A stretch of DNA of 64,000 nucleotides, from positions 1-64,000 of IMG/VR virus record IMGVR_UViG_3300046170_000494; one strand, written 5' to 3'. Under the pieces are notes generated by a model that worked only from the letters and a program-made list of their open reading frames with translations, ran no database searches and was not told the origin of the DNA. Shown piece by piece: positions 25,205-58,759 of the stretch. The first letter of the stretch is position 1; each line of letters begins with the position of its first letter. This stretch comes from a virus. The translations under genes were made by a program, and so were the position numbers.

Positions 25205-25604
25205 ATAACAAATTGAGAAACAAACTCAAATAAATCAAATAATCGATCTTTTACATTTTAAAAACAAGTTGGAGTTCACAATCTCATTCTGTTAAGTCAG
25301 AGTTCACTCGATCATTTCAATTTGTTTTGACTTTGGATGTTCTCGACGGAGACATCCTGTGGGTGACTGAATAAGCTCGTCGTGAGCGAGCTAAGGTACG
25401 CGATTCTCTGTGGTAGAGTGCTGATGGGCAAATGTCTGAGGCAGGACAATCACCAATGTCTAATCGTTGTAGGAAGTAGGTAAACACGAAACTGATGTTC
25501 ACGCCGAAAACTTGAGGGTATACAGGAATCCCTCCCCACTTCAATTTCTTAATCATATCCCTCCAACCCTATCCAAGTAACCCTACTTGGGTAGGGTTTT
25601 TTTT
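25205..25604 (+). ncRNA. structured ncRNA, resembling the manA RNA motif
   Basis: Own promoter and terminator, GC-rich, no + strand ORF. Hairpins GGATGT/ACATCC, AGCTCG/CGAGCT, GAGGG/CCCTC. Segments GACTGAATAA, TAAGGT and GGTATACAGGAATCC match my recollection of manA RNAs (not verified). Confidence 0.6.
25565..25604 (+). terminator. intrinsic terminator
   Basis: 15-bp stem AACCCTATCCAAGTA/TACTTGGGTAGGGTT followed by a T run. Confidence 0.9.
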
Positions 25605-26572: not shown

Positions 26573-26710
26573 TCCAAATATGAAAGACAAATACCCAAAT
26601 ACTAAATAATGAAAATTGCAATAGTAAATAATACAAATAATAAACTAAATAATAAAAAATTTGTGAAATTAGAATAAAAAGAATAAGTAATTAAAAAAAT
26701 TATTTTGTGC

Positions 26711-26767
26711 AGTCAGCCCCCCCCTGAGAGGATAAGTCACAAACTTAGTTGAATATTAGCCTTGACT
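26711..26767 (+). repeat. GC-box promoter module A
   Basis: C8 run, GATAAGTCA, TAGTTGAA, then TTGACT-16-CATACT. Confidence 0.7.
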
Positions 26768-26795
26768 TTGTGTAAAAAAATGTCATACTAAAGCT

Positions 26796-28429
26796 ATGAT
26801 TAAGACAAAGCCTCACGACAAAAAGTATGAGATTAATTTTAATCAACCTGTCTACGCTTACAAAAACCTACACAAAGATTGTTGGAGTATTCGTCAAGAT
26901 GGATTGGTTAAAGCTCACACCAAAGAACTTTCCATGCATAGTTGCGTGTTTAAAGTCAGTAAGCATGGAAGAGCAAGAGTGTTAAAAGAAAAACGCAAAA
27001 ATGTTCATGCAGGTATTGAAGGTTACATTGAACCTTGGTTTGTTGGTAAATGGATTGACTCGCATCCAACAGCAAGACCCGTTACTTACAATCCATACAA
27101 GTATGAGAATTTTGTTGACAAAGACACCGAGCAAATGGTAGACTATGCTATTGCCGTAAGATTAGAACCCAAACAAGTATTAGCAGTATTATGACGCAAG
27201 CAAAAATTAGAGAAGAAATTCTAAGCATAGTTCGAGGAGAACTTGCATGGGCAGATCCAATGTCTAAAGTATGCTTAGATCAGCATGAATTGCATCCAAA
27301 AAAGTTTCCGATTGGCTCAACTTTTCAATCAGCCGAAGAAGTCTTAGACGACATAATTCATGGCTTGACATCTTTACGAGATGAGATTAGAATAGAATCT
27401 TCATTTCAATCCGCACAACTCTAACAAAAGGAAAATCATGGGATTAGACCAAGAAGCATACTCACGAGGCAAAGAAGATCAAAGTTCTTTCTCTCATTAT
27501 TGGCGAAAGCATAATCGTCTCCAAGGATGGATGGAAAACCTTTGGGAAGAAAAAGGTAGACCAAATTCTCGCACAGAAAATGATCCAATGGGAGACTTTA
27601 ATTGTGTTGAGCTAGAATTAACAAGAGAAGACATTGATTTGCTAGAGGAAGCAGTAAATGATTTTGCATTACCTGAAACACAAGGATTTTTCTTTGGAGA
27701 TGATTCTTACTTCTACAAAGATGACAATGGAGAATCTCTTCCTGAGAACGATTACTACCACAAAGAGCAAGATTTGCAATTCATCGAAGATGCAAAAAAA
27801 GCTCTTGACAAAGGTGAGAAAGTTTACTATTCTAGTTGGTATTGATTATGGAAGAACTACAAAACACAATTAACGATCTGCAAGCTAGACTAGCAATAGT
27901 TGGCGGAGGCAGGATCATTATTACTAGCGACCATGTTTCGATTCGTCTCGGAAGAGAACATGAATACTTTGAGGTTCAAGAACAAAGTTCTTTTGACTCG
28001 CCAAACGAAGTCGATGTGGAAATGCACAAACAAATGTACAATTACTAAAATGGAAAACGAAAATTACATTAATGCGGTTTGCGAAGGCGAGCCATTAGAA
28101 ACGCCATCCTACAATCAGGATTCAGAAACTTGGAGTTTATGGTTTGAGGAATCAGAAACCCCTTACCATCCATATTTTCAAAAGGATTTAATCGAGGTTC
28201 ATTTTGAATCTCAAGCGGAAGCAGAGAGTGCTTACAACCATTATTCACAAATTAACCAAGGTTAATCATGTCGAATTCAGCTCAATCATTGCAGAAGAAA
28301 GTTCGTGAAATAGGTTTTAATTTAGCTATGATCGAAAAGCGTGGGCTTCGGGGCAAGGATCATCTTGCTCGCAGGCTTGCACACAATCTCTTGCTTAATC
28401 AGCTTTACGAGTTAGAGAAAAAGGTTTAG
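26796..28429 (+). CDS. cassette A: six small genes
   Basis: 26796-27194 (conserved YKNLHK..WS..RKNVHA family), 27191-27424, 27438-27845 (conserved MGLDQ..YWRKHN..FFFG..YYSSW family), 27836-28048, 28050-28265, 28268-28429. Confidence 0.65.
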
Positions 28430-28436
28430 TAGGTTT

Positions 28437-28465
28437 GGGTTCGGTGGGTTAATCCTGCCGAACCC
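28437..28465 (+). terminator. hairpin, probable terminator
   Basis: 12-bp stem GGGTTCGGTGGG/CCTGCCGAACCC followed by TTCTACTTT. Confidence 0.65.
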
Positions 28466-28490
28466 TTCTACTTTATTGCACAATTTTACT

Positions 28491-28556
28491 CAGGCCCCCC
28501 CGCAAAAGAATAAGTCAATTATTTAGTAGAATGTTTTTTGCATTTGGGGGTTGACA
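28491..28556 (+). repeat. GC-box promoter module B
   Basis: GGC7, GAATAAGTCA, TAGTAGAA, then TTGACA-16-CATACT. Confidence 0.7.
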
Positions 28557-28721
28557 ATACCGGATTTTCTGTCATACTAGTAAACATAAAGGCGATAATC
28601 ACAAACAAAAAAAATTAGTCGAAACAAAAAAAACTTAATTGAAGAAAAAAAAGCTTGACAGATTAGACCAAATTTAGTACAATTAACTCATCAAAGACAA
28701 TAACTCACAAAGCTAAAAATT

Positions 28722-29474
28722 ATGACAAATCGAATTAACCTCAAAGTATGTGCAACCAAAGAATCCTCTTTCAAAGATGTTCAGGCAGTTCAAACTCCTG
28801 AAGCAACTGATTCATGGAGACCAATTAGCCACTCATTCTTAGTTGACCGAGTGCAAAACCAAATGGAACAAAATGGTTGGGAAATCGTTGACACTTACCA
28901 TTCTCTTCATCGTTTCGGTCAACGCTACTTCGGACTTTTTCATGTTAAGAATACAGGAGTTGACAACGATGAGCGTGGCACAATCGTTGGGCTTCGCAAC
29001 TCTCACGACAAATGCTTTCCCGCAGGACTTTGCATGGGTAACGCTCCATTTGTTTGTTCAAACTTGATTTTTACCAATGAAGTTGTTCTTGCTCGTAGGC
29101 ATACTAAGAACATCTTGAACGATCTTTCACAAGTAATCGCTCGCACTCTTGGCAAGATGACTGAGACATGGGCAAGTGATGAGCAACGCATTCAAGCTTA
29201 CAAGGAGCATGAACTTGGCAACGAGCAAGCACATGATCTTGTCATCCGTGCATACCAAAACGGAGCAATTCCAAAAGCAAAGATTGCTGATGTTGTTGAG
29301 CAATGGCACAAGCCTGAACATGATGACTTTTCACCTCGCACCATGCACTCATTGTACAATGGATTCACTCACATTCTAAAGGGTGGAATTACCGCCTTGC
29401 CAAATCGTTCACTTGCATTGCATGGTGTTCTTGACTCGGAAGTCGGTTTGACTTCTCAAGTTGCAGTTTCTTAA
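28722..29474 (+). CDS. DUF932 family protein
   Basis: WRPISH...VGLRNSHDK...FVCSNLIF...RRHTKN pattern. Confidence 0.78.
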   Translation: MTNRINLKVCATKESSFKDVQAVQTPEATDSWRPISHSFLVDRVQNQMEQNGWEIVDTYHSLHRFGQRYFGLFHVKNTGVDNDERGTIVGLRNSHDKCFPAGLCMGNAPFVCSNLIFTNEVVLARRHTKNILNDLSQVIARTLGKMTETWASDEQRIQAYKEHELGNEQAHDLVIRAYQNGAIPKAKIADVVEQWHKPEHDDFSPRTMHSLYNGFTHILKGGITALPNRSLALHGVLDSEVGLTSQVAVS

Positions 29475-29518
29475 TCATAACCTAACCTAATCTAAAAATC
29501 ATTAAAACTAATAATACT

Positions 29519-29749
29519 ATGAAAAAACAGCCAAAACTACAAAATGTCGTTGATTCTCTCAAAGGTCGTTTCACTTCTCTTCTTGTCAAGAGAGGCGAGC
29601 AAAGAAGGGTGTATTCCGCCAAAATCACAGGAGTGACTTCTCGTCATGTGATGTTCAAGGATACCAACGGAGGCAATCGTCGAGTCAATCGTCGTCATGT
29701 GCTTCGAGCCACTTGTGCTGACAAAACTTTTAAGAGGTCGGTGAGTTAG
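29519..29749 (+). CDS. small basic protein (SH3/WYL-like)
   Basis: GRFTSLLVKRGEQRRVYSAK; fold assignment is tentative. Confidence 0.5.
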   Translation: MKKQPKLQNVVDSLKGRFTSLLVKRGEQRRVYSAKITGVTSRHVMFKDTNGGNRRVNRRHVLRATCADKTFKRSVS

Positions 29750-29775
29750 TGATTCGCTCGTAAAGAGCAAAGATT

Positions 29776-29800
29776 AAGCCTCCCGAAAGGGAGGCTTTTT
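29776..29800 (+). terminator. intrinsic terminator
   Basis: AAGCCTCCC-GAAA-GGGAGGCTT followed by a T run. Confidence 0.92.
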
Positions 29801-29807
29801 CTTTTAT

Positions 29808-29881
29808 AAAGTTAACCTATTCAATCCGGGCCCCCCGGCAGTAGAATCGTGCAAAAACTTAGTTGAATTTTGGACTTGACT
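29808..29881 (+). repeat. GC-box promoter module C
   Basis: AAAGTTAACC..CCGGGCCCCCC..GAATCGTGCAA..TAGTTGAA..TTGACT. Confidence 0.85.
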
Positions 29882-29909
29882 TTAGGCAAGAATTTGTCAT
29901 AATGAAACC

Positions 29910-30650
29910 ATGATTAAGACAACAATTCTCACTCAAGGAAATGCAAAGATAGTCAAAGGCGAGGAGCTTGGCTATGTTACTAAAGGCATCCATTTTGCTC
30001 CTGCTAGTCTCTCAGGTAATGAGGTTTGCCAATGGCGAAGCAAAGGTTGCACTGCTTCTTGTCTCAACACTGCTGGTCGTGGGCAAATGAACTCAATTCA
30101 GGCATCAAGAGTAGCAAAGACAAAACTATTTTTTGACAAGAAAAAAGAATTCATGTACAAGTTGTGCAAAGAAATTGCTTCTTCAATCAAGACTTCAACC
30201 AAGAAAGGAATGAAATCAGTTTTCCGTCTCAATCTAACTAGCGACATTGCTTGGGAGGATGTTTACATGAAAGACCCAGATTACAACATCTTTGAATACT
30301 TCTGTGGAGAACAATTCTACGATTACACAAAGTCATTCAAGAGAATGTGTGCTTTTCTTGGTAAACCTTTTACTAAAGATGAACAAAAATTTCCATCTAA
30401 TTACCATCTAACTTTTTCTCGCTCAGAAAACAATGACAAGAAGTGTGAAATGGTTCTTGCTATGGGTGGTAATGTTGCCGTTGTGTTTCGCAACCAACTT
30501 CCACAAACTTGGAAAGGTTACGAAGTTGTCAATGGTGACGAAAACGATTTGCGTTTTCTCGACAAGCAAGGTGTTGTTGTTGGCTTAATCGAGAAAGGTT
30601 TGGCAAAGAAAGATGAAACAGGATTCGTGCAAGAAGGAGTAAACTCATAA
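29910..30650 (+). CDS. Gp88-like protein
   Basis: CQWRSKGCTASCL, FRLNLTSDI, QFYDYTK, YHLTFSRSE, GDENDLRFLD. Confidence 0.82.
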   Translation: MIKTTILTQGNAKIVKGEELGYVTKGIHFAPASLSGNEVCQWRSKGCTASCLNTAGRGQMNSIQASRVAKTKLFFDKKKEFMYKLCKEIASSIKTSTKKGMKSVFRLNLTSDIAWEDVYMKDPDYNIFEYFCGEQFYDYTKSFKRMCAFLGKPFTKDEQKFPSNYHLTFSRSENNDKKCEMVLAMGGNVAVVFRNQLPQTWKGYEVVNGDENDLRFLDKQGVVVGLIEKGLAKKDETGFVQEGVNS

Positions 30651-30841
30651 TGAAACCAAAAACTTATTCAGTTAGACAACATCATTTACGAAAAAACAAA
30701 ACTTTTTTCATTATTGATTATCGAGTTAATGAAAGAGTAGAAAAGCAAATTCAATTCACTTATCTTGAGCATTACTTACAATTCACTGATTTATTAAAGC
30801 AATTAGACTACAAAGAAGTATTGACAAAACAACTCAACTAA
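30650..30841 (+). CDS. hypothetical protein
   Basis: Start coupled to the Gp88 stop. Confidence 0.5.
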   Translation: MKPKTYSVRQHHLRKNKTFFIIDYRVNERVEKQIQFTYLEHYLQFTDLLKQLDYKEVLTKQLN

Positions 30842-31021
30842 ACTATTATTGTAACATGAATGATACTTATTACGACTCAGCCGAAGAAATTAAACTCTCA
30901 CAAAGTGAAGCCTTTAATGTGCTTGCTCAACATGGTTGCCAAGAGCTTGATGAATTTTTTCAAGACATGGGCGACAAAGAAGAGTATGATGCACAAAAAG
31001 TATTGGAATGGTTAGGCTACT

Positions 31022-31097
31022 AAAAAGTTAACCGATCCTGCCACGGGGGCCCCGCGATAGAATCGTGCAAAAACTTAGTAGAATATTAGTCTTGACT
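31022..31097 (+). repeat. GC-box promoter module D
   Basis: AAAAAGTTAACCGATCC..GGGGGCCCC..GAATCGTGCAA..TAGTAGAA..TTGACT. Confidence 0.85.
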
Positions 31098-31126
31098 TCG
31101 CTAGAGGTTCTGTCATAATGATACTT

Positions 31127-31227
31127 ACCGACACGATTTAACCAAGCTGCAAATTGGTGGTAATGAAGAGAAGCATGATTGCAGTCACCGCTCCACTCTT
31201 GAGGGTTCAATTCCCTCCGTGTTCGGT
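31127..31227 (+). ncRNA. tRNA-like RNA (T arm plus acceptor-like stem, non-canonical body)
   Basis: GAGGG-TTCAATT-CCCTC T arm; 5' ACCGACACG pairs with 3' CGTGTTCGGT; starts at the TSS of the module D promoter. Confidence 0.55.
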
Positions 31228-31272
31228 ATGATTTTTTCTTGACTTTCACCATTAATCTGTCACAATTAAACT

Positions 31273-31386
31273 ATGATTAAGATTAGAAAAACCATTCTCT
31301 TCACCAAGTCTAGACCTCACAAGCTTAAGACTAAAGTGATTCATCGTAAACTCAAACACAAGGAGATTTTAAAAAATGTTCATTAA
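31273..31386 (+). CDS. 37-aa basic peptide, ArfA-like pattern
   Basis: MIKIRKTILFTKSRPHKLKTKVIHRKLKHKEILKNVH; own promoter TTGACT(31239)-16-CACAAT. Confidence 0.5.
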   Translation: MIKIRKTILFTKSRPHKLKTKVIHRKLKHKEILKNVH

Positions 31387-32345
31387 AGAAAATTCTGAAG
31401 AAATTCCTAACTCAAAAGAGGCTATGAGTCTTTGCATGGCATACCTCTGGGAAAATGTCATTGAACCAAGTAGCAAGGAAGGCGTCATTAGTCTAAAAAA
31501 TTATGACATGATTAAAGAGATTGGTCATGCTTTAACCATCATTGGAGAAAAAGCTCACGCCTACGAGAAAATGATTGACAACAACGAGCAATTTCCCTTA
31601 CAATCCTAATTAATGAAACACTTGCTAACTAAATCAAATGACGGATGCTTCATTATTGTAAGCTCAGAAGAAAAGACAGACAAGAATGATCTGTTCATCT
31701 CTGAAGACACATTCAAAAAGAACATTAACACTAAAACATTCGTAAAACACTCAACGCTAACCCATAATTCACAACCAATCTACATTTACCATGAAGACCT
31801 TTGATGACTTAAAATTCGCACCTCACCCTCACGCAAAAGATTTGGGAGTGACGGCAAGTTTAACCCTTGACAATGGCTATGCTTTCAGCGTTGTTGCTAA
31901 TACTGATGGTGGCGATCTGTTTTACGGCAATCACCCAAACACTTTTGAGGTTGCAGTCTTCAATCAACGAGGTGACTTTGTTCCACTCTCTGTTTCGGAC
32001 GATGTGCTTGGTTGGCAAGCTCCACACCAAGTGACTTCGCTGATGCATCAATTTGAGATTGACGGAATCAAGCACGAAAAATTACTTCACGATCTTCGGA
32101 ATGACTTCAACGAAAAAGTAGTAAAAAAACACAAAGAAAGAGGCAGGATTATGAATAGTTACCAAATACTAAAGAACGGCGAGCCAATGGGCATTCAAGG
32201 AACTTTTGACTACATTGTCAACGCAATACGAAACCTTGAATCAAATCTTGATCGAGCAACTGAACATTCACCTTTTACTGTTGCACTCGTAAATACTCAA
32301 GCTAAAATAACAAAAAATTTAGTGGAAACAACAAATACTAAATAA
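31376..32345 (+). CDS. three hypothetical genes (31376-31609, 31613-31804, 31791-32345)
   Basis: The last begins with the conserved phage pattern MKTFDDL.F..H...NGYAFSVV...FEVAV...DDVLGW. Confidence 0.6.
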
Positions 32346-32414
32346 TAAATAACAAATACTAAATAAAAGAATAGGTCAATCAAGATATAAAAATTATATT
32401 ATAAAAGTATTTAA

Positions 32415-32455
32415 TTAACCGATTCTATCAGGGCCCCCCTGCAGTGGGATAAGAT
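32415..32455 (+). repeat. truncated GC-box module E at the convergence point
   Basis: TTAACCGATTC..CAGGGCCCCCCTGC..GATAAG with no promoter following. Confidence 0.7.
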
Positions 32456-32469
32456 AACTTTTTAAGAGG

Positions 32470-32923
32470 TTACTCCCATTGGGAGTGAAATCCCCAATCA
32501 ATGTCGGGCTGGTCTTCAAATTGTATGAGTGAGATCTGGTCTTCCAGCTCGCCAATTTCATTGCGTATTGCAATTCTTTGAGAGTCGGTCAAGATGCACT
32601 CTTTAAGAACTTTGTGAAGTTCGAGGATTTCTTTTTGCATTTCGTTTTTGGTCATAAAAGTAATTTAGCAAAGTAAAAAAGTAATTGCAAGCTTTTTATT
32701 CATCCATTAACCACTCGTCAAGTGCGTAAATGTCAAGCTCTTCATCTTTAAAGCTCGCTCCGTCAGGAGTAGCAAACATTCCTGCATTTTCAAGGCAACT
32801 TGCAAGATCCTTAAAGCTCACAAATCTACGAGAGAGCTTGTAAAGGAATTCGTCATTATCTAACCAAAGAGCGACATTCCAAGTTGCCCAATTTTTCCAT
32901 CCGTTGTATGTTGTATCTGTCAT
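32470..32923 (-). CDS. two small genes (32470-32655, 32696-32923)
   Basis: The second has the conserved TYNGW.NWATWNVALWLDNDE.LY motif; start 32923 is 6 nt after TACATT. Confidence 0.65.
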
Positions 32924-32949
32924 GATAGTAATGTAGTCAAATTTTTCAC

Positions 32950-33028
32950 AAAAGTCAAGAAAAACTTTCAACTATTTTATTGCACAATTCGCTCGCAGGG
33001 GGGCCCGGGTTGGATCGGGCAACTTTTT
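32950..33028 (-). repeat. GC-box promoter module F
   Basis: 47 bp identical to module H, then GGGGGGCCCGGGTTGGATCGGGCAACTTTTT (+ strand reading). Confidence 0.9.
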
Positions 33029-33036
33029 AACGCTAA

Positions 33037-33068
33037 AGGTCAGGTCACTAAAAGTGACCTATTGACCT
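33037..33068. terminator. inverted repeat hairpin
   Basis: AGGTC-AGGTCAC-TAAAA-GTGACCT-AT-TGACCT. Confidence 0.5.
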
Positions 33069-33214
33069 AAAGCATGAACCAAAGAAAGAATAATGGAGAG
33101 AGGATTATGCAACCTAGCTCTAGTAAAAGTAATTCCATTTTAGAAAACTGAATCGGTTATTCCACGAAAAATGCCAATGACGAACGCTATTGAGAGAAGT
33201 AGTGCTAATTCCAT
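33067..33214 (-). CDS. two tandem transmembrane micropeptides (33140-33214, 24 aa; 33067-33138, 23 aa)
   Basis: MELALLLSIAFVIGIFRGITDSVF and MELLLLELGCIILSPLFFLWFML; promoter TTGACT-17-TACAAT with ATG 6 nt downstream. Confidence 0.55.
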
Positions 33215-33251
33215 AATCTAATTGTAGCAAAAAAAGGCTTGTTAGTCAAGC

Positions 33252-33992
33252 CTATTCTCCGAAGATTTCACGCATTGACGGACTCACGGATTTCATGTCG
33301 TGAAGATTTTCGTCATTGTCAAAGTCATCATCTTCTTCGGCTTTGTCATCAAAAGAAGCAAGCTCTTGAACTTCATCTTGAACATCTTCTTTTTTTGCGT
33401 TAAGTAAGCCATATTCGAGAACGAGATCTTCAGCAAGCTTTTCGACCTTTAATTCTTCAATGAAGTTTTGAAGTACAGGACTTACTTCGGCATTATTATT
33501 TTCCGCAATTCTACGGATGTTTTCTAGTCTTTGTGATTCTGTCATAGTAATTAGATTAAACGAATTTTTCAGGTTTTGCAAGCAAAAACTTCATGAAAGT
33601 TTTTTGTGCTTTTTGATTGTCTTGAATCTCGTCAAGCTCAATTTGGGCATTGATGACCATTTGCATGGATTCAATGTTGCCAAGATCGGCAAGAGGTGTT
33701 TGGATTCGAATGATTTCTTTGAGTTCTTTTATTTTGTCCATGGTAGTAATCTAGTTGATTTTTTAATTTATTGCAAGCTAAAAACGATTTATTTTTGAAT
33801 TTCTTTAAACATTTTTTGAAGAGCTTCAACCTTTTCAATGAGTCCTTGCGTTGTCATTTCTTCAGTCAAAGTCCTTGCGGATTCTTTTTTTTCTGTGTTC
33901 ATGTAATGCAAAAACTCAATAGACCCTTTGATTTGAGCGAGCTTAATTCCGAAGTCGAGTTCTTGGAGGAGTGTTTCTTTTGTCTTAATCAT
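33252..33992 (-). CDS. three small genes (33252-33545 highly acidic, 33556-33741, 33789-33992)
   Basis: Each is preceded by a TTG-type promoter on the minus strand. Confidence 0.6.
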
Positions 33993-34021
33993 AAGTAAAA
34001 ACTACCACAGAAACCGGCAAA

Positions 34022-34097
34022 ACACAAGCCTAAAATTCAACTATTTTATTGCACAATCCGCTCGCGGGGGGGCCCGAGTTGGATCGGGCAACTTTTT
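34022..34097 (-). repeat. GC-box promoter module G
   Basis: One mismatch to module H across the ~60-bp core. Confidence 0.9.
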
Positions 34098-34713
34098 AGA
34101 CGATTTGGGTTAGTCTATTTATTTTTGCTGTGAGAGTGATTTGCCTTGCCTCATTCTGCCATTTTTGTGAACTATTGCTGAACCTTTTATTTCTAGATAG
34201 ATTCATCACAGAAAAAGCTCCTTCGTGCAGTCTATTCACTACCTTGCACAATTCTCTTGTTTCTTTGATTGGATTTGATTTGTCTTTGACAAAGTCAGAG
34301 GTTTGAAGCCAAACATTTTTCATTTTCAAGATTTCAACATTTGTTCTAATTCTGTAAAATTTTACATCAACTAAATTCTCAGGCGTTCCATCCCAAAAGC
34401 CGACAACCAAAACCAAACCTTTTTTAATTGTTTTTAATTTTCTTGCAATGTCTCCGAGTTGAATTTCTTTGCTTTTTATATTGTAGTATTTTACTTCCCA
34501 ATCTCCGATCAATTTTTTAGGAACTCCGCCTTGGCGAACAATTTCTTCAGGAAAGTCAACTTCTGCGTTGTGCTGTTCATGAGTAGGAAAGCCAAAGTAA
34601 TCAGAGATGAAGCGTTCAAACGCTTTGCCGTGCTTTCCTCTTTGTTTGTTGTGTACGCTGATATTACGAACATATTGTTTGATTTTTGGGAATGATTTTT
34701 GTGCAAGTTTCAT
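34096..34713 (-). CDS. PD-(D/E)XK restriction-endonuclease-like protein
   Basis: HGKAFERFI...VD...WEVK...IQLGDIAR pattern. Confidence 0.55.
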   Translation of the reverse strand: MKLAQKSFPKIKQYVRNISVHNKQRGKHGKAFERFISDYFGFPTHEQHNAEVDFPEEIVRQGGVPKKLIGDWEVKYYNIKSKEIQLGDIARKLKTIKKGLVLVVGFWDGTPENLVDVKFYRIRTNVEILKMKNVWLQTSDFVKDKSNPIKETRELCKVVNRLHEGAFSVMNLSRNKRFSNSSQKWQNEARQITLTAKINRLTQIV

Positions 34714-34765
34714 AATTTTATTTTTTAAGCAATTAGATTTGAGTTTATATAAATTTTTTTTTCTG

Positions 34766-34966
34766 TCAAGCATTTCTTTCTACTGACTTCCAACCATAAG
34801 CTAAAACTTTGTCATTATAGCGAGCTTGTGAAAGCATAGCCTTAAGGTCAGAAATTTTTGCATTGATCCAATCAATTTCGCTTTGATCCATTTTACCTTG
34901 CCACATTGCAAGTTGGTTTTTTTCTATTGCGATTTCGTTTTTTATTTGTTCTGTTGTCTTAATCAT
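34766..34966 (-). CDS. hypothetical protein
   Basis: Starts ATGATTAAGACA; own promoter. Confidence 0.6.
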   Translation of the reverse strand: MIKTTEQIKNEIAIEKNQLAMWQGKMDQSEIDWINAKISDLKAMLSQARYNDKVLAYGWKSVERNA

Positions 34967-35119
34967 ATTTACAATCTATTATATATTTTAGCAAAAGTCA
35001 AACTTTATTTTACTTTTTTTTGAGTTTTTTTAAGTTTGAAGGCGAGGAGAATTTTTTCTCTTTCTGTGAGTGGTTGTCTATCTTTTTGATTCATACCTAA
35101 ACATCGCACAGAAACCCCG

Positions 35120-35198
35120 AAAAGTCAAGAAAAACTTTCAACTATTTTATTGCACAATTCGCTCGCGGGGGGGCCCGAGTTGGATCGGGCAACTTTTT
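35120..35198 (-). repeat. GC-box promoter module H
   Basis: + strand reading AAAAGTCAAG..TTTTATTGCACAATTCGCTCGC-G7-CCCGAGTTGGATCGGGCAACTTTTT. Confidence 0.9.
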
Positions 35199-35204
35199 AG
35201 TTGG

Positions 35205-35963
35205 TTAAAACACAAGAAGATCTGGCTCAGCAGTATTAGAAGCGAACCAGTCGGATGGGTTAATTTCTTGACCATTTAGTACAGGCTCGAATTTGTACTG
35301 ATAGACGCCCGCGTTAGCTATGCCGTTGACGCGTTCGCGTGTGGTGGGTGTATTCCATCCCGCAAGCGACCATCTGACAAGCCCGTCAGGATCGCGTTTG
35401 ACAATTGCGTTACCATGCAGCCAAACGGTTTTGCCGTCTGTCTCGGTGTTGCCGACTTTTAAAGATGTGCCTTGCTCGAAGGCTGCTTTGATTTGTGCTG
35501 TTACTTTTCGCATAATTATTTTGTTTCGTTTTTTCTTTGTTTGTGAAGGATTGCTTGCAATTGTTTTCTTGCTTCCTGTATTGCATGCAACGCATCCAAC
35601 ACAGCTTCGCCTTGTGTGAATGTTTTCATTTCTGCATTAGCAAGGAAGTTCAGATTTCCTTCGGCTTTCGAAAGAGCGAGTCCGAGTTCTAGTTCGATGA
35701 ATCTTTTTTGTTCTGTCATAGTATTACTTTAAGAAATTTTTTGTGCAATTGCAAGCTAAAAGTGAATTATTTTAAGCTATCCATTCGACAAGTTCAAACT
35801 TTCTAGGCAGTCCAAACTTGGCAAGATCTTTGTTCAAGTCTTCAATCGTTGCGTGATGTTCGCATTTCATCATTACATTTGAGCTGATCAGCTCGCCTGT
35901 CTTGCGGTCAATTATATTTACTTTGGCAATGAAGCCGTTTACTTTATTATTTGTCTTAATCAT
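35205..35963 (-). CDS. three small genes (35205-35513, 35516-35719, 35772-35963)
   Basis: The first has the conserved MRK...NT...VWLHGNAI...GWNTPTTRERVN phage pattern. Confidence 0.65.
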
Positions 35964-35994
35964 ATACCTACAAGGTAGCACATCAGGTCAGAAA

Positions 35995-36080
35995 TTGCAA
36001 GCAAAAAGTGAAAAAAGATTCTCTTATTTTATTGCACAATTCAACCGCCGGGGGGCCCGAGTTGGATCGGGCAACTTTTT
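35995..36080 (-). repeat. GC-box promoter module I
   Basis: TTTTATTGCACAATTC..G6-CCCGAGTTGGATCGGGCAACTTTTT. Confidence 0.88.
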
Positions 36081-36878
36081 AGTCAGTTAGTAGATCGCTA
36101 AACATAAAGTAGAATACGAGAGACATATTGGCGAAAAAGATAATTTCTAAGATCATAATTTTTTAGTTGTTTAGGTTACTTATTACTTGAGAGAATAGGT
36201 GAGCGAGTGCGTTGGCTTAATTCTTGAGCTATTTCTAAAGCCTTCGCATAGCTTTTCGCGTTGTCAACGAGCTTGCCGTTGTAAAAAACATTGAACCAAT
36301 TTTGGAAGTTTGGGTTTCTGAATACATTAATCATAATTATTTATTCTAAAGGTTTACTAGCAAAGGTCAAGCTTTATTGCCAAATTGTTTCCACATCGTC
36401 GTGGATTTGAGAGAAAGAAATGTCTTGCTCTTCCGCAAGTATTCTGTCAAGGTATGGAGCTCGACCTGTTTTGCGGTCGATGTTCGCGGAACGAACTCGT
36501 GGATATTCTTGGGATGGGTTATCCCAAACTTTAACGCTGTAGTGGGTTGACCACTTTTTAATTCTTATTTTCTTAATCATATGTAATTACTTTAATCTTT
36601 TTTTTTAAAAATTGCAAGTAAAAAGCAAATTATTTTACGAGTTCAAGTATTTCTTCGCAAGCTTCGACGCATCCCGATTCCCAAAACAACTCAGGATCTC
36701 GTATCTCGGAAACAACTTTTTCGGATGACAACTCAGAAGGAACTGAAACAACTTCACCAAGTCCAAGCTTGCCACCAAAGGCTTCTGCTAAGTTGTCGCA
36801 AGCACGATCGTTGCAACCTTCGTCAGCGTCGGCAAGTATTGAAAAGAGAGCTTGTATTTTTTCTTGTGATAATTTCAT
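36079..36878 (-). CDS. four small genes (36079-36156 TM micropeptide, 36176-36334, 36374-36580, 36630-36878)
   Basis: Hand-checked starts lie just downstream of minus-strand promoters. Confidence 0.55.
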
Positions 36879-36938
36879 AATTTTTTTTCTTATATTGTTT
36901 AACTTACTATATATACAATCTAACAAACTGAGCCGGAA

Positions 36939-36998
36939 TTGCAAGAAAAAAGCGAAAAAAGATTCAACTATTTTATTGCACTATACCCCCACCCCCGG
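36939..36998 (-). repeat. divergent GC-box module J
   Basis: TTCAACTATTTTATTGCAC is shared with F-H, followed by CCCCCACCCCCGG instead of the G run. Confidence 0.6.
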
Positions 36999-37223
36999 TA
37001 TGACCCTACCCATTAAATGAATTCATTTCCTGTATTAGTTTTGTGAGAAGTGCGGGGGGTGCCTTTTTTCAATATGAAATTCATCTTATAAATTACAATA
37101 TATATGTTCAACTAAAAAAAATACGGGGCCTATATAAAAATAATCAATTTATATATAAAACAATAAGGCTTGCCTCATAAAAAAATAAAAAACGTGTACT
37201 ATTATGTTAGTATAATATATAAA

Positions 37224-37958
37224 ATGCCTCGACGCAAGAAAAAACCGGAAATCGTGAATGAGGATGATATCGAAAGAATTCGTACCTCATTAACCAAAAC
37301 AAATATAAAACTTAAACAAATAAGTTTAACGGACAAACAAAAACAATTATTAAAAATAATCTTTGACAAAGATAGTAAAATAATATTTATTAGTGGTCCC
37401 GCTGGAACAAGTAAAACATATGTTGCAATATATGGAGCCTTGCAATTATACAACATGAATAATGAGCGCGGAATTACTTATGTTCGAACAATTGCAGAGA
37501 GTGGTGAAAAAAGTCTTGGAGCGTTGCCTGGCGAAATGGCGGAAAAAATCAATCCATACATGATGCCAATGAATGAAAAACTAGATGAATTATTAATTCC
37601 TGGTCAAGCAAGTATAGTAAAAGACAAAGAAATAGTTAAAGGTATGCCTATCAACTACTTACGCGGAGCAAGTTGGCGCGACGAGATTGTAATCGCGGAT
37701 GAATCTCAAAATTTCACATTTAAAGAATTAACAACATTAATGACACGTCTTGGTCGCGGCAGTAAATTAATTATTTGCGGTGACCCTATGCAAAGTGATA
37801 TTAATGGGAAAAGTGGATTTGCAGATATGTACTCTGTGTTTAATGATGAAGATAGTCGCGAGAAAGGAATACATACTTTTCATTTCGGAGCAGAAGATAT
37901 TCAAAGAAGTGAAATACTTAAGTATGTAATAACTAAAATTCAAAATCATAAAAAATAG
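37224..37958 (+). CDS. phoH: PhoH family ATPase
   Basis: GPAGTSKT Walker A, LGALPG, YLRGASW, IADESQN, LMTRLG, GDPMQSD. Confidence 0.92.
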   Translation: MPRRKKKPEIVNEDDIERIRTSLTKTNIKLKQISLTDKQKQLLKIIFDKDSKIIFISGPAGTSKTYVAIYGALQLYNMNNERGITYVRTIAESGEKSLGALPGEMAEKINPYMMPMNEKLDELLIPGQASIVKDKEIVKGMPINYLRGASWRDEIVIADESQNFTFKELTTLMTRLGRGSKLIICGDPMQSDINGKSGFADMYSVFNDEDSREKGIHTFHFGAEDIQRSEILKYVITKIQNHKK

Positions 37959-37962
37959 TGTA
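37958..37962 (+). promoter_or_regulatory. putative phage late promoter GTGTA-N9-ATG
   Basis: 9 nt before ATG 37972. Confidence 0.55.
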
Positions 37963-37971
37963 TGAAGTACT

Positions 37972-38502: not shown

Positions 38503-38514
38503 TATAAAAAATTA

Positions 38515-38519
38515 GTGTA
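38515..38519 (+). promoter_or_regulatory. putative phage late promoter GTGTA-N9-ATG
   Basis: 9 nt before ATG 38529. Confidence 0.55.
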
Positions 38520-38528
38520 TAATAAATT

Positions 38529-39809
38529 ATGGCCGATTCAAAGATATCAGATTTACCAGAAAGCTCAAATCCAAATCCATTATCAAAAGTAATTACTGCT
38601 TATAATGGACAAAATTATCAAGTGCCTTTAACATCTCTTGTTTCTAGTGCTAGTGCTCCTAAATTTGTGTTTTATTTAAATTCTTCGGGGACCGCAAACA
38701 ATAATAGTTCTTTTGAAGATTTGAATCTTCAGCCGGGCCAAAATGATTTTCAAATAGCGTCTACTCGATTTAATTCTTTTAAATTGTGTATGATATGGAT
38801 TCGGAATAATTTAGGTGCGGGCGGAGGACTTGTTCATATAATATTCGAAACAAATATCTCAGATACTCGGGGTTCTCAACCGATGTTTTCAGATGCAAAA
38901 ACAGATATCTATGTTTTTGGAAATAAAGTAGTGGGGGAATATTTCTCTCAAGGTGTTAATGGCTCTATACCATCTTCATCGAATAACCCTGGACCAAGGT
39001 TAACTTATACTCTTGACGGCACAGCGCATCAAAATACCCCTAACTTTATAGACTTTTGGTTCAATGGCAGAATAACTTTCTACGGTTTAAAATTTGATAT
39101 TAAAAATTTTAATAATCAAGGGCAATCCTTTGGTCTTTTCAGATTTTCTTATAGGAATGCATATAGTTTTTTTAATGGGGTTACGGTTAAAGTCGCAACG
39201 GGAAATAATAATACGAGCGTTCCGAGGGTTATTGAGGCAGATGGAGGAGCAATATTTTGCAGTTCAATCATAATAGGGTCGGGCTCAATCGATATTTTAG
39301 ACTCATTTTTTTCGGGTAATTCTAGATTAGCAGCTTTTGAATTTGAACTTGCTCAAGGAAGTGGCGTTGGCGATTTTTTCTCTGTAAATACAGGAGCGCT
39401 TGCGGGAGTAACTGAGTTTGGTTATATGCATTTTGGCGTTTCAAGTTATACAGCTAATGCTAGAATACATTTTATAAACAGTTGTACTATGTCGAACTTT
39501 GTTGCCATACAATCTGGATCTGAATTTTCAACAAATGGAATGTGTGTATCTAAAGCAAGTGGAGTGACTGTCAGTTCGGGTGATGCGATAGAGGCTAATG
39601 CATTTAACACTTTATTAATATCAAATTTTGCTGGATCACTTACAAGTACATCTACAACTACTAATAGTGGAGTGCAAAGACTGCCAGGAACAAGAAAATT
39701 TGGAAGTGGTAATACAGCGGGTCAAGACTATATTATATTCCCAGACGATTTTACTAATGTATCAAGCGGAAGTATTGTAACCGCTCCCCATGCACGTTAT
39801 ACCAGATAA
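38529..39809 (+). CDS. fibre/spike-like protein
   Basis: KISDLP N-terminus; Gly/Ser/Asn/Phe-rich beta-type body. Confidence 0.6.
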   Translation: MADSKISDLPESSNPNPLSKVITAYNGQNYQVPLTSLVSSASAPKFVFYLNSSGTANNNSSFEDLNLQPGQNDFQIASTRFNSFKLCMIWIRNNLGAGGGLVHIIFETNISDTRGSQPMFSDAKTDIYVFGNKVVGEYFSQGVNGSIPSSSNNPGPRLTYTLDGTAHQNTPNFIDFWFNGRITFYGLKFDIKNFNNQGQSFGLFRFSYRNAYSFFNGVTVKVATGNNNTSVPRVIEADGGAIFCSSIIIGSGSIDILDSFFSGNSRLAAFEFELAQGSGVGDFFSVNTGALAGVTEFGYMHFGVSSYTANARIHFINSCTMSNFVAIQSGSEFSTNGMCVSKASGVTVSSGDAIEANAFNTLLISNFAGSLTSTSTTTNSGVQRLPGTRKFGSGNTAGQDYIIFPDDFTNVSSGSIVTAPHARYTR

Positions 39810-40018
39810 TGAATGAATTAAATATATATCACACATCATTCCTTCCTTCTAGGGAGGATACATATAAAAACCCAGTATATGACAAAAGCGGGAATCTCAT
39901 AAAAGCCACTAAATGCTGCACAAAAGAAGATATTACTCCAGGCCATAAAGATTGGGACAGCGCTGTAGAATTTATTAAAATTGGCTACCCCAAAGATATT
40001 TCCGAAAAAACAGAATAA
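39809..40018 (+). CDS. hypothetical protein (possible fibre assembly helper)
   Basis: Coupled to the fibre gene. Confidence 0.45.
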   Translation: MNELNIYHTSFLPSREDTYKNPVYDKSGNLIKATKCCTKEDITPGHKDWDSAVEFIKIGYPKDISEKTE

Positions 40019-40027
40019 TTTAATATC

Positions 40028-41407
40028 ATGGCTATTAAAATATCAGAATTAACCTCGCAAGCAAGACCTAATGCAAGTTCGGAAATTGCTATTGCATTTG
40101 GAGGATCAAGTTACAAAGTAAAAATTTCAGATTTACTAAACACAACTTCTGCAATATATACTTCAACAGTAGGATTTATTGGAGATTCTGGGAGTGGAGC
40201 TGTTGAAGGAGGTCAAATATATTTTGGTTTACCTGGTATTAGCCAAAGTGAGTTATCTTCAAATCCAGAAGGTAACGGTTGGAATATCGATTGTTTTAGA
40301 GATATAGATGGTGGATATGGATTTGGTGCTGGCGATAATACTTATTTGCGATTTTTCTCGCCTATGCAAAGATGGACTTCCACGGCAAGCGGACTCTTAG
40401 ACCCTATACTAATGACTCCAAGAGGAGGTCTATATGCCAATGGTTTTGTTAATCGAATGTATCATGATATAACTTATTCAAGGCGTAGCGTGATAGGTGG
40501 AGGTTCTGGCGCATCAAAGGGAGATGTTATCATGCAAGCAAATTTAGGACTCACTAATCTTAGTGAAGGCAATGCGATTAATGTAGTTTACGGCACAGGA
40601 AATCCTACATTTATATCGTACACCGGAGGAGCATCTGCGGGCATGCGTCTGTCAACGGTGTATAAACCTGACGGTTCCGAGACTAGCACCGCTATAAGAA
40701 ACACAGATATATTTAATGAAGGAAATTATGGAACTCTTCAAATTACAAAACCAGGAAAAACTTCAAATTCAACAATTCTTACTCTCACTCTAGATGGAAC
40801 ATTAAGCACTATTGGCGGAGGAACTTCTGACGAAAGAGTCAAAAAAGACATAGAATCTTTAAGTCAAGCTGAAAAAAATGTAGCTTTAAAAATAAAAGCT
40901 AATATGAAAAAATTCAGAAGAACTGATCAAATAGAAGAAGGCAAAAAACTTAAGATTGGTGCTATCGCACAAGAAGTTGAGCAATTTTTTAACGAAGAGG
41001 GTCTAGACTATAAAGATTATTCAATTATTCACACGGAAAAAAGGTATGCTTTATTTGAAGGAGACAAAATAATCAAACACGAGTTACCTTCCGACATTGA
41101 AAATACAGAAGTCGAAGAACAAAAATCTAAAACTAAAGTCATATTAAAAGATGGCACTGAATACATCGGCGATGTCACTTCCTGGTTCTCGGAGGAAGAA
41201 TGTGCAGAGTGCGTGAGCCGTGGTATGACAAGAGATGAGTATCTCAATACTAAGATTTGCATACATATTGATGAGGATAAATATGAAGTTATTGCGCGAG
41301 AAGATATCGCTTCACAAAAAATTCTTCCACCAAAAGGTTGGGTTGAAGTAGACTTTTTTAGAATAGATTACGATCAACTTTTGGCATTTATAATTTCAGC
41401 TTTATAA
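40028..41407 (+). CDS. fibre protein with C-terminal intramolecular chaperone (peptidase S74)
   Basis: TSDERVKKDI...IGAIAQEVE...IDYDQLLAFII. Confidence 0.8.
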   Translation: MAIKISELTSQARPNASSEIAIAFGGSSYKVKISDLLNTTSAIYTSTVGFIGDSGSGAVEGGQIYFGLPGISQSELSSNPEGNGWNIDCFRDIDGGYGFGAGDNTYLRFFSPMQRWTSTASGLLDPILMTPRGGLYANGFVNRMYHDITYSRRSVIGGGSGASKGDVIMQANLGLTNLSEGNAINVVYGTGNPTFISYTGGASAGMRLSTVYKPDGSETSTAIRNTDIFNEGNYGTLQITKPGKTSNSTILTLTLDGTLSTIGGGTSDERVKKDIESLSQAEKNVALKIKANMKKFRRTDQIEEGKKLKIGAIAQEVEQFFNEEGLDYKDYSIIHTEKRYALFEGDKIIKHELPSDIENTEVEEQKSKTKVILKDGTEYIGDVTSWFSEEECAECVSRGMTRDEYLNTKICIHIDEDKYEVIAREDIASQKILPPKGWVEVDFFRIDYDQLLAFIISAL

Positions 41408-43114: not shown

Positions 43115-43255
43115 TAGTATATAGTAATATAATATATTTAAAAGTAAAGTGTTTTTTAATTTAAAATTGTTTATTATAAATTATAATGAATATTATGGAA
43201 TGCAGAGAGGTTCTGCAGGAATCTATATAGAAACTTTTAGTGTAAATATATTTTA

Positions 43256-48705: not shown

Positions 48706-49071
48706 ATGGCTTTTTCTTACTGTCCTCATTGTGGGTTTAAAAATATGTATTCTATGCAAGCGCCAAAATTTTGTGGTGGTTGTGGAGAAAGTTTGAGTAT
48801 ATTGTCTGCTGCAAAAACTCAAAAATCTATTTCACGCAAACAGGTTTCTCCCCAAAGAAATCAAGTGGTTGATGATCCTGACGGAGTTGACATTTACGAA
48901 GTGCCTCACATTTCAAAATTGTCGTATAGTATAGAAACAGATAAAAACAAATTCGATTTAAAAGATTTAGTTCCATTGGAAGCTCTTGAGGAATTTAATG
49001 AAGATGAGGGAAAGTCAACTGTAAAAAAACAAGCAACAAAAAAGAAGCGTGGAAGACCAGCAAAGCGATAG
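48706..49071 (+). CDS. zinc-ribbon protein
   Basis: CPHCG...KFCGGCG. Confidence 0.7.
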   Translation: MAFSYCPHCGFKNMYSMQAPKFCGGCGESLSILSAAKTQKSISRKQVSPQRNQVVDDPDGVDIYEVPHISKLSYSIETDKNKFDLKDLVPLEALEEFNEDEGKSTVKKQATKKKRGRPAKR

Positions 49072-49792
49072 TTTTTCATACGAGGACAAAGCTGAAGAGA
49101 TTGACATAGAGATTAAAAAAAGAAGAGGCAAGTGGTTTTTAGATTCTCTTGCTTGGTTCGACTTTGAAGATGTAGAGCAAATTATAAAAGCTCATATTTA
49201 TAAAAAATGGCACCAATGGGATCAACGAAGGTCTTTGAAGCCGTGGGTTAACAAAATTATAACTAATCAAATGAAAAACATCTTGCGCAATAACTATAGT
49301 AACTTCGTTAGACCTTGTTTGAATTGCCCATTTAACCAATCAGGTCCCGCTCAAGATGGTTGTAGTCATTCTCTATGCGGTTTCACAAAAAGCGGGCTGC
49401 AAGACTCGACTTGTCCATTGTACGCAAAATGGGAACGAACAAAAAAATCTGCTTATGGAATTAAAATGGCTTTAGCTTTAGAAAACCATAGCCACGAAGT
49501 TGGGCAAATGCAAGACGGAAGCTTTGATATACAACAGTGTCAGGATAAATTAAATGAGTATATGAAAAAAGATTTATCCGAAAAACAGTTTACCGTATAT
49601 AAATTACTTTTCATTGATCATAAAAGTGAAGAAGAGGTTGCTAAAAAAATGGGTTATAAGACTTCCGAAAAAGGGAGAAAAGCGGGATACAAGCAAATTA
49701 AAAATCTTAAAAAAATATTTAAACAAAAAGCGCAAGAAATACTTGAAAAAGAAGATATTATTCCGGTAAAAAGTGTGATGCTATGGAGTTAA
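49049..49792 (+). CDS. phage RNA polymerase sigma factor
   Basis: Region 2-like FEDVEQ...KPWVNKIITNQMKNILR; region 4-like LSEKQFTVYKLLFI..SEEEVAKKMG. Confidence 0.7.
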   Translation: MEDQQSDSFSYEDKAEEIDIEIKKRRGKWFLDSLAWFDFEDVEQIIKAHIYKKWHQWDQRRSLKPWVNKIITNQMKNILRNNYSNFVRPCLNCPFNQSGPAQDGCSHSLCGFTKSGLQDSTCPLYAKWERTKKSAYGIKMALALENHSHEVGQMQDGSFDIQQCQDKLNEYMKKDLSEKQFTVYKLLFIDHKSEEEVAKKMGYKTSEKGRKAGYKQIKNLKKIFKQKAQEILEKEDIIPVKSVMLWS

Positions 49793-54288: not shown

Positions 54289-54304
54289 GTGTAACACTTT
54301 GCAA

Positions 54305-58739: not shown

Positions 58740-58745
58740 TTTTAA

Positions 58746-58750
58746 GTGTA
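58746..58750 (+). promoter_or_regulatory. putative phage late promoter GTGTA-N9-ATG
   Basis: 9 nt before ATG 58760. Confidence 0.55.
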
Positions 58751-58759
58751 ATAAATATT

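Follow-up and report, generated by a model that had tools for sequence, protein, structure and literature searches.

An array of promoter-like modules between the small genes of an uncultured marine phage

In the DNA of a large uncultured marine phage, of which a 64,000-nt portion was analyzed (positions 1 to 64,000 of the IMG/VR virus record IMGVR_UViG_3300046170_000494; hereafter the window), small genes are separated time after time by nearly the same noncoding sequence, here called the module. The question raised by this locus is whether the module serves only the expression of the genes beside it or also their exchange. A preliminary description had proposed a cassette system in which ten copies both drive early transcription and provide homology, or a protein-bound site, for the gain, loss, and shuffling of genes. 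The explanation that now seems probable is that the modules are regulatory cassettes of composite build, set between the genes of a hyperplastic early region, and that they act like the promoter-early stem-loop (PeSL) elements known from T4-type phages.

The module and its array

A profile built from the copies and run with nhmmer finds exactly ten modules in the window (A to J), all of them between 26.7 and 37.0 kb. The matches are at 26693, 28468, 29804, 31020, and 32409 on the plus strand and at 33030, 34099, 35200, 36082, and 36992 on the minus strand, with E-values from 1e-24 to 3e-5, and the rest of the window holds none below 0.01. The scan confirms the number and the positions of the copies given in the preliminary description, and the identities noted there also hold: F and H share an identical run of 47 nt, and G and H differ by a single mismatch over the first 63 nt. 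Modules A–D are on the plus strand and F–J on the minus strand, with the genes oriented likewise; the unit is 80–110 nt long and recurs every 0.3–1.8 kb.

Such an array is highly non-random. The sequence GGGCCCCC occurs seven times, against 0.11 occurrences expected, and eight of the nine G/C runs of at least 9 nt in the 64 kb fall within the array. A comparable picture is offered by the relative G004, an IMG/VR genome of 184,324 bp with 34% G+C that is complete by CheckV and syntenic along the entire window (window 1–64000 corresponds to 83.6–144.5 kb of G004). Its modules are confined to one 10-kb stretch, 103.7–114.0 kb, and 7 of its 11 G/C runs of that length lie within the array. The G/C box that had been assigned to all ten copies is indeed rare elsewhere, but module J is without it.

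Modules were found by exact-pattern scans on about ten related IMG/VR contigs, and 58 marine metagenome stretches, Tara Oceans scaffolds among them, bear modules as well; each of the longer contigs has an array of 5–10. Bacterial and archaeal genomes scanned for the module core gave no match. Some contigs suggested by a loose pattern (L025, L027, and L029–L031) were dropped, as they proved to be unrelated sequence on inspection. The lineage is an uncultured one, distributed worldwide in the sea (Tara and other ocean metagenomes).

The anatomy of the module is given by an alignment of 38 modules taken from four genomes (the window, G004, and two more relatives), in which the A of the ATG is counted as +1 and which is free of gaps from the G/C block through the ATG. 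The module fills the entire gap separating two genes and often opens with the codon that ends the preceding gene; D and G contain this stop codon within their 5′ arm, and the ATG stands at a fixed distance in most copies. A block of 1–7 G and 3–8 C, usually followed by GC, stands at about −83 to −72. The box GGATYGTGCAA comes four variable bases after the block or its GC, at −67 to −57, and is followed by an AT-rich, UP-like tract with TAGTTGAA that extends to −37. The −35 hexamer is TTGACT, the spacer of 17 nt ends in TGn, the −10 hexamer is TAnnTT or CATAAT, and the ATG follows 5–6 nt past it. The distance from the GTGCAA box to the −35 is 27 nt in 27 of 30 modules, and that from the start of the −35 to the ATG is 34–35 nt in 25 modules. 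The consensus of the preliminary description was correct and its unit of about 75 bp is real, but the conserved unit is bigger and more rigid. The box written there as GAAT(C/T)GTGCAA is invariant in most copies but degenerate in A and B, and the succession of promoter and ATG is found in most, except that E has no promoter and B and D have no ATG behind the −10.

The promoter half matches the sigma-70 consensus with rigid geometry. Because the ATG comes so shortly after the −10 that there is no room for a leader, the mRNAs should be leaderless, starting at the ATG itself, and the modules are predicted to be active and early promoters. No Shine-Dalgarno sequence is present ahead of the module ATG, which is too near the −10; the internal genes of the cassettes have AAGGAG-type ribosome sites. 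Most module-fronted genes start with ATGATTAAG: a leaderless ATG is found in 151 of the 221 modules counted over 66 marine loci, and 91 of the 151 have this beginning. Leaderless sigma-70-type promoters without a G/C block are also frequent between 0.6 and 37 kb of the window, and leaderless expression looks like the rule for the early genes of this phage.

About 23 sigma-70-type promoters with the ATG 5–7 nt past the −10 were observed between window positions 600 and 37300, on both strands. The genes fronted by them include the ligase gene (21503) and the open reading frames (ORFs) at 628 and 16513. Beyond 37 kb there is only one such promoter, and the structural region is nearly devoid of them.

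Exchange of genes and its possible explanations

The sequence of the module is conserved more than the genes that flank it. In module H, the part between G/C block and ATG has 88% identity with modules of relatives, whose genes are 45–80% identical in nucleotides to those of the window. The sequence of the −35/−10 spacer is conserved among many copies too, which points to a common descent of the copies and not merely to selection for a promoter. The plus-arm modules are nearest to their positional counterparts in other genomes; the minus-arm modules are closely alike both within and between genomes.

The genes themselves turn over. In cassette maps of four genomes, the flanks (an Ogg-like gene and PhoH) are fixed and the plus arm is fairly stable; the minus arm varies in gene order, gene content, family duplications, number of modules, and the presence of adjacent empty modules. 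The first genes behind the modules of the 66 loci belong to at least 27 unrelated families, in line with the earlier statement that the genes between copies are unrelated. In two relatives, two full modules lie about 300 nt apart with no ORF of at least 38 aa between them (L026 8985–9346 and L045 6312–6670); these pairs may be empty cassettes or micro-cassettes.

Besides their anatomy and their restriction to a single region, the modules are marked by scars of recombination. The record comprises one allele swap with the exact limits of an ORF and four indels of single genes; their junctions fall within promoter repeats or on the border of module G, and 20–29 nt of sequence is shared at the junctions. 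One gene (36630–36936; an 82-aa ORF with its ATG at 36878, minus strand) is missing in three relatives, and the junction falls within a 20-nt direct repeat (36610–36629 and 36937–36956) that holds the TTGCAA −35 of two promoters. A tRNA-like stretch (31120–31237) is missing in the sister strain G002, where both flanking promoter copies are merged into one. The relative L002 carries an extra gene of 59 aa, starting with ATGATTAAG, directly behind the promoter of window gene 35719. Another gene (30649–30854) is missing in G002, with a junction formed by two start-codon regions.

The allele swap follows the limits of one gene. The genomes G002 and L003 are 100% identical to the window for kilobases on each side of a single gene (34096–34712, minus strand, 205 aa), which is only about 78% identical to its counterpart in them. 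The divergence coincides exactly with the ORF, beginning with its start codon and ending with the stop codon that module G contains; it is bounded by module G and by the upstream region of the swapped gene itself. Divergence that follows an ORF so exactly is the expected trace of exchange with a more distant phage via conserved intergenic sequence. The order and content of the genes thus differ between relatives and the junctions lie in repeats, a comparison set beforehand as the test of cassette gain, loss, and shuffling, and this part of the earlier proposal is borne out.

The following mechanism may be suggested. The sigma-70 polymerase of the host would start at the module ATG and give a leaderless mRNA. 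The homologous recombination of the phage itself would cross over between module copies, both within one genome and between co-infecting relatives, which is possible because a repeat of this length recurs at such short intervals. As an outcome, single genes would be deleted, inserted, duplicated, or swapped, and each would retain a promoter and a start codon.

Several points weigh against this explanation. The indel at 30649–30854 has only a few bases of homology at its junction. The crossovers observed map to the promoter half or to the border of the module, and none can be placed inside the G/C block, so that the repeat is a site of exchange in those parts but never demonstrably in the block. 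The intergenic position of the junctions could partly reflect survivorship, as only breaks between genes leave viable phages. The strength of the promoters, their timing, and the leaderless starts are read from sequence only. With regard to the stem-loop character of PeSL elements, the G and C runs of the block abut with no loop between them, and the folding energy of six module arms is not better than that of shuffled sequences (z −1.75 to +0.4). The complementarity of the five bases on either side of the block, compared in 30 distinct modules with permuted partners, gives p = 0.17, and on this ground a conserved extended palindrome around the block was dropped as a candidate. Finally, canonical terminators adjoin the block in B and C.

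The preliminary description had seen in the block two mutually exclusive hairpins. This was not supported by the comparison: both are limited to F–I and fold no better than shuffles, and the GCCCGA/TCGGGC stem is absent from A–E and from most modules of relatives. At the F locus of a sister strain whose DNA is elsewhere 100% identical, mutations in the arm have removed this stem and left the G/C block. The runs differ in length from module to module, and the point where G gives way to C shifts. The negative structure tests, together with the stem lost in the sister strain, indicate that what is conserved is a sequence and not a demonstrable structure. The best guess is that the block is a transcriptional insulator or attenuator between cassettes, like the polyG/polyC stem-loop of PeSL elements; that it is a protein-binding site is almost as likely.

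Two alternatives deserve mention. According to one, which is possible but not probable, the modules form an operator array: the block and the GTGCAA box would bind a phage or host protein that switches all promoters jointly, for example in an early shut-off, and recombination at the repeats would be only a side effect. Indeed, the block and box stand at a fixed distance from the −35, above the UP-like tract, where class I activators and upstream repressors bind, and their positions are nearly invariant although the proteins have diverged to 50–80% across genomes. G/C blocks are found almost nowhere else in the genome, the block is retained even in the promoterless copy E, and the conservation of sequence without structure suits a bound site. 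However, no candidate DNA-binding protein was identified, a sliding boundary with varying run lengths would be odd for a sequence-specific site, and J and its counterparts keep the promoter without the block. An operator array is also compatible with regulatory cassettes that exchange genes, and both may be true. The other alternative, which is rather doubtful, takes the modules as terminator–promoter pairs only: the 5′ arm and the G/C block would end or attenuate transcription (sense or antisense read-through) and stabilize RNA 3′ ends, and the repeat would be conserved to insulate neighboring cassettes. This finds some favor in the position of E exactly where the arms converge, in the finding that the PeSL stem-loop of RB49 terminates as well as rrnB T1 in a reporter (PMC2839356), and in modules F–I, which have a 6-bp G+C stem with a T-run; yet according to a terminator scan this stem is read as a terminator only on the plus strand, antisense to the genes. 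The sense strand has no T-run behind the block. The arrangement of an intrinsic terminator, a hairpin followed by a T-run, was not found on the transcribed strand, and A–E and J have it on neither strand. Moreover, the hairpin is limited to F–I, was destroyed in the sister strain, and has an energy no better than that of shuffles, as described above, and B and C need canonical terminators of their own, which argues that the block itself is not an ordinary terminator.

Mechanisms with a dedicated enzyme or protein are less plausible. That the array arose by integron-like site-specific capture, or that the module is a selfish miniature transposable element with its own enzyme, is very improbable, although short cassettes split by a partly palindromic repeat, and one module ahead of so many unrelated gene families, would be in keeping with it. 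The tyrosine recombinase family PF00589 was not found in the complete genome G004, where the controls all matched, which makes an integron-like mechanism unlikely. The alignment of 38 modules has neither terminal inverted repeats nor target duplications, and the modules always have the same orientation as the genes, with stop and start codons as their limits; on these grounds the module is unlikely to be transposon-like. Furthermore, the 20–29 nt shared at junctions are as in homologous exchange, and no cellular genome has the module. It is also unlikely, though less so, that the GnCm block and the GTGCAA box serve for the docking of a dedicated protein, made either early by the phage or by the host, which actively promotes cassette exchange or gates the whole array in a coordinated manner. 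If this were true, the array would be an integron-like capture platform that is independent of a recombinase and has a portable unit of "promoter plus first three codons", and any captured ORF would obtain leaderless expression.

The cargo of the cassettes had been expected to serve host takeover or anti-defense, and this was not borne out: most genes of the array are ORFans, and a search of ten minus-arm genes against PHROGs gave one family of unknown function and nothing further. A single-sequence AlphaFold model of the 205/225-aa gene between G and H reached a pLDDT of only 40.

Individual copies and their genomic surroundings

The plus arm begins with module A (26693–26798), which has a C-run block at 26717–26725, a degenerate box, the −35 TTGACT at 26762, and an extended −10; its gene starts with a leaderless ATG at 26796 and encodes a 132-aa, L5 gp82-like protein. 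Module B (28468–28580, plus strand) lies directly 3′ of a canonical terminator (28437–28465) and has a G/C block at 28493–28503, a degenerate box, a −35 at 28551, and a −10 ending at 28578, with no ATG behind it; a second promoter (28655–28683) stands downstream, ahead of a DUF932 gene. A canonical terminator (29776–29797) is found upstream of module C as well. Module C (29804–29912, plus strand) has its G/C block at 29826–29839, a GTGCAA box, a −35 at 29876, and a leaderless ATG at 29910 that opens a GP88-family gene.

Module D (31020–31119, plus strand), with an upstream stop codon at 31021–31023, a G/C block at 31044–31056, and a −35 at 31092, points into a non-coding, tRNA-like stretch rather than to an ATG. 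This stretch is a putative small RNA cassette (31124–31236, plus strand) in which a T-arm-like hairpin is combined with a terminal stem of 10 bp and a T-run behind the stem. It folds at −33.3 kcal/mol (z −2.6). ARAGORN found no tRNA in the array, 31124–31236 included, and the same segment has in Rfam merely a sub-threshold pemK match. At the gathering score, the only Rfam hit is a manA RNA outside the array. The small RNA is absent from G002 and from every other relative fetched. It is followed by a solo promoter copy without a G/C block (31238–31275, plus strand), with a leaderless ATG at 31273, which is the right-hand repeat of the 31120–31237 indel.

The arms converge at module E (32408–32464), which the profile matches on both strands; it has a G/C block at 32431–32439, a 5′ arm on each strand, and no promoter. 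An 11-mer, CAAATACTAAA, has four exact copies in the 64 kb, all on the plus strand (26596, 32163, 32332, and 32353), in AT-rich stretches ahead of modules A and E, that is, at the ends of the plus arm. In relatives, iterations of the CAAATA type are found next to the E copy, and the 11-mer could be iteron-like.

All modules of the other arm are on the minus strand. Module F (32921–33030) has a G/C block at 32998–33006, a −35 at 32958, and a leaderless ATG at 32923. Module G (33990–34099), one edge of the allele swap, has its upstream stop codon at 34096–34098, its G/C block at 34063–34076, and a leaderless ATG at 33992. Module H (35092–35200) has a G/C block at 35164–35177, a −35 at 35128, and an ATG at 35094. 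The sole gene that it drives is a lysine-rich 29-aa ORF (35010–35094, minus strand), and the gene after this ORF (34966) has a promoter of its own (35001–34973). In module I (35961–36082; G/C block at 36045–36059), the distance from the box to the −35, a TTGCAA at 36000, is 10 nt longer, and a leaderless ATG stands at 35963. Module J (36953–37010) is the first promoter of the minus arm, beside the divergent PhoH gene. It retains the GTGCAA box and the AT tract with no G/C block, and its counterparts in three other genomes are likewise without the block.

Beyond the array, the window encodes rIIA/rIIB-like proteins, an ATP-dependent ligase, PhoH, fiber proteins, and a sigma-like protein, as well as a large terminase, a ClpB-like ATPase, and a DnaE-type polymerase. 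A DNA comparison with cultured phages gave no close relative of the window. The best cultured match of the terminase is only 24% identical, the protein matches of the polymerase are all distant, and for the capsid protein there is none. On the basis of the terminase, the capsid, and the DnaE-type polymerase, the lineage is not T4-like. The manA RNA (Rfam RF01745, 84 bits, full length) lies shortly 5′ of the array at 25335–25544 on the plus strand. On the other side, a gene of the fiber region (38529–39809) is missing in L001 (window 38623–40090), which makes the fiber cluster downstream of PhoH a second plastic region.

The structural and fiber genes have a TAGTGTA(A/T)-like motif about 12 nt 5′ of the start and no −35 (37950–37971, 38505–38528, 43230–43255, 54280–54298, and 58740–58759). 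This motif is likely a late promoter for a phage sigma factor. The G004 counterpart of the ORF at 49049–49792 (plus strand) has Sigma70_r2 above the Pfam cut-off, and a second sigma-like ORF is present in G004 at about 4.1 kb. The module promoter is unlike the motif of the structural genes, and this fits early transcription by the host polymerase.

Comparison with known systems

Dense tiny early genes with a strong host-type promoter for each group are known from the host-takeover module of the Bacillus phage SPO1 and from the terminal-repeat early genes of Kayvirus and T5-like phages, and the array resembles them in this respect. Those promoters are not known to be part of an extended repeat of near-identical copies that bears a G/C block, or to serve as linkers for recombination; the mRNAs made from them have leaders. 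Another likeness is offered by the start-associated sequences (SAS/ESAS) and stoperators of mycobacteriophages, which are also short and conserved and recur within a single phage genome at numerous gene starts or between genes. These motifs have 13–17 nt, are scattered genome-wide, and are linked to translation starts or repressor binding, whereas the module has about 100 nt, contains a full promoter, and is confined to one 10-kb array.

The closest parallel is the PeSL, which was described in the T4-type phages RB49/phi1, T4/PST, and KVP40/nt-1 (Arbiol et al. 2010, PMC2839356; Comeau et al. 2014, PMC4122927). A PeSL consists of an upstream stop codon, an AT-rich tract, a sigma-70 promoter, a stem-loop that is often polyG then polyC, a ribosome site, and a start codon; the elements cluster in hyperplastic regions, and crossovers map within them (PMC2839356, PMC4122927). 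Mini-circles, excised when adjacent elements exchange, are a further PeSL trait. Binding of a recombination protein to the GGGG...CCCC motif was raised by the authors as a speculation (PMC2839356, PMC4122927). Most of this is found again in the modules: a polyG/polyC element, an AT-rich tract above the −35, and a near-consensus sigma-70 promoter, bounded by an upstream stop codon and a downstream start codon. Both elements are clustered among the small ORFan genes of a hyperplastic region, and in both systems close relatives differ by indels or replacements with junctions in the elements. The comparison with PeSL made in the preliminary description was an apt one, as the parts are the same (PMC2839356, PMC4122927).

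The differences are also clear. The PeSL phages are T4-type and the module phage is not. The G/C runs of the module abut and occupy a fixed site above the AT tract, whereas the PeSL stem-loop lies within or next to the −35/−10. The modules add an invariant GTGCAA box and have no Shine-Dalgarno sequence; transcription is predicted to begin at the ATG, and the repeat extends over the first three codons. The array is mirrored, with two arms and, where they meet, a copy that has no promoter.

The modules are best filed as a PeSL-like variant in a non-T4 lineage and not as a categorically new system. They extend the idea of regulatory cassettes that double as recombination linkers past the T4-type phages, and in a stricter form, since the repeat itself would have the transcription start and the first codons, so that an ORF placed behind it would be expressed without a ribosome-binding site. 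Owing to its fixed place upstream, the G/C block lends itself well to study with reporters or binding assays. As a site of fast-turning accessory genes (at least 27 families, mostly ORFans), the array is a natural place in which to search for host-takeover and counter-defense functions.

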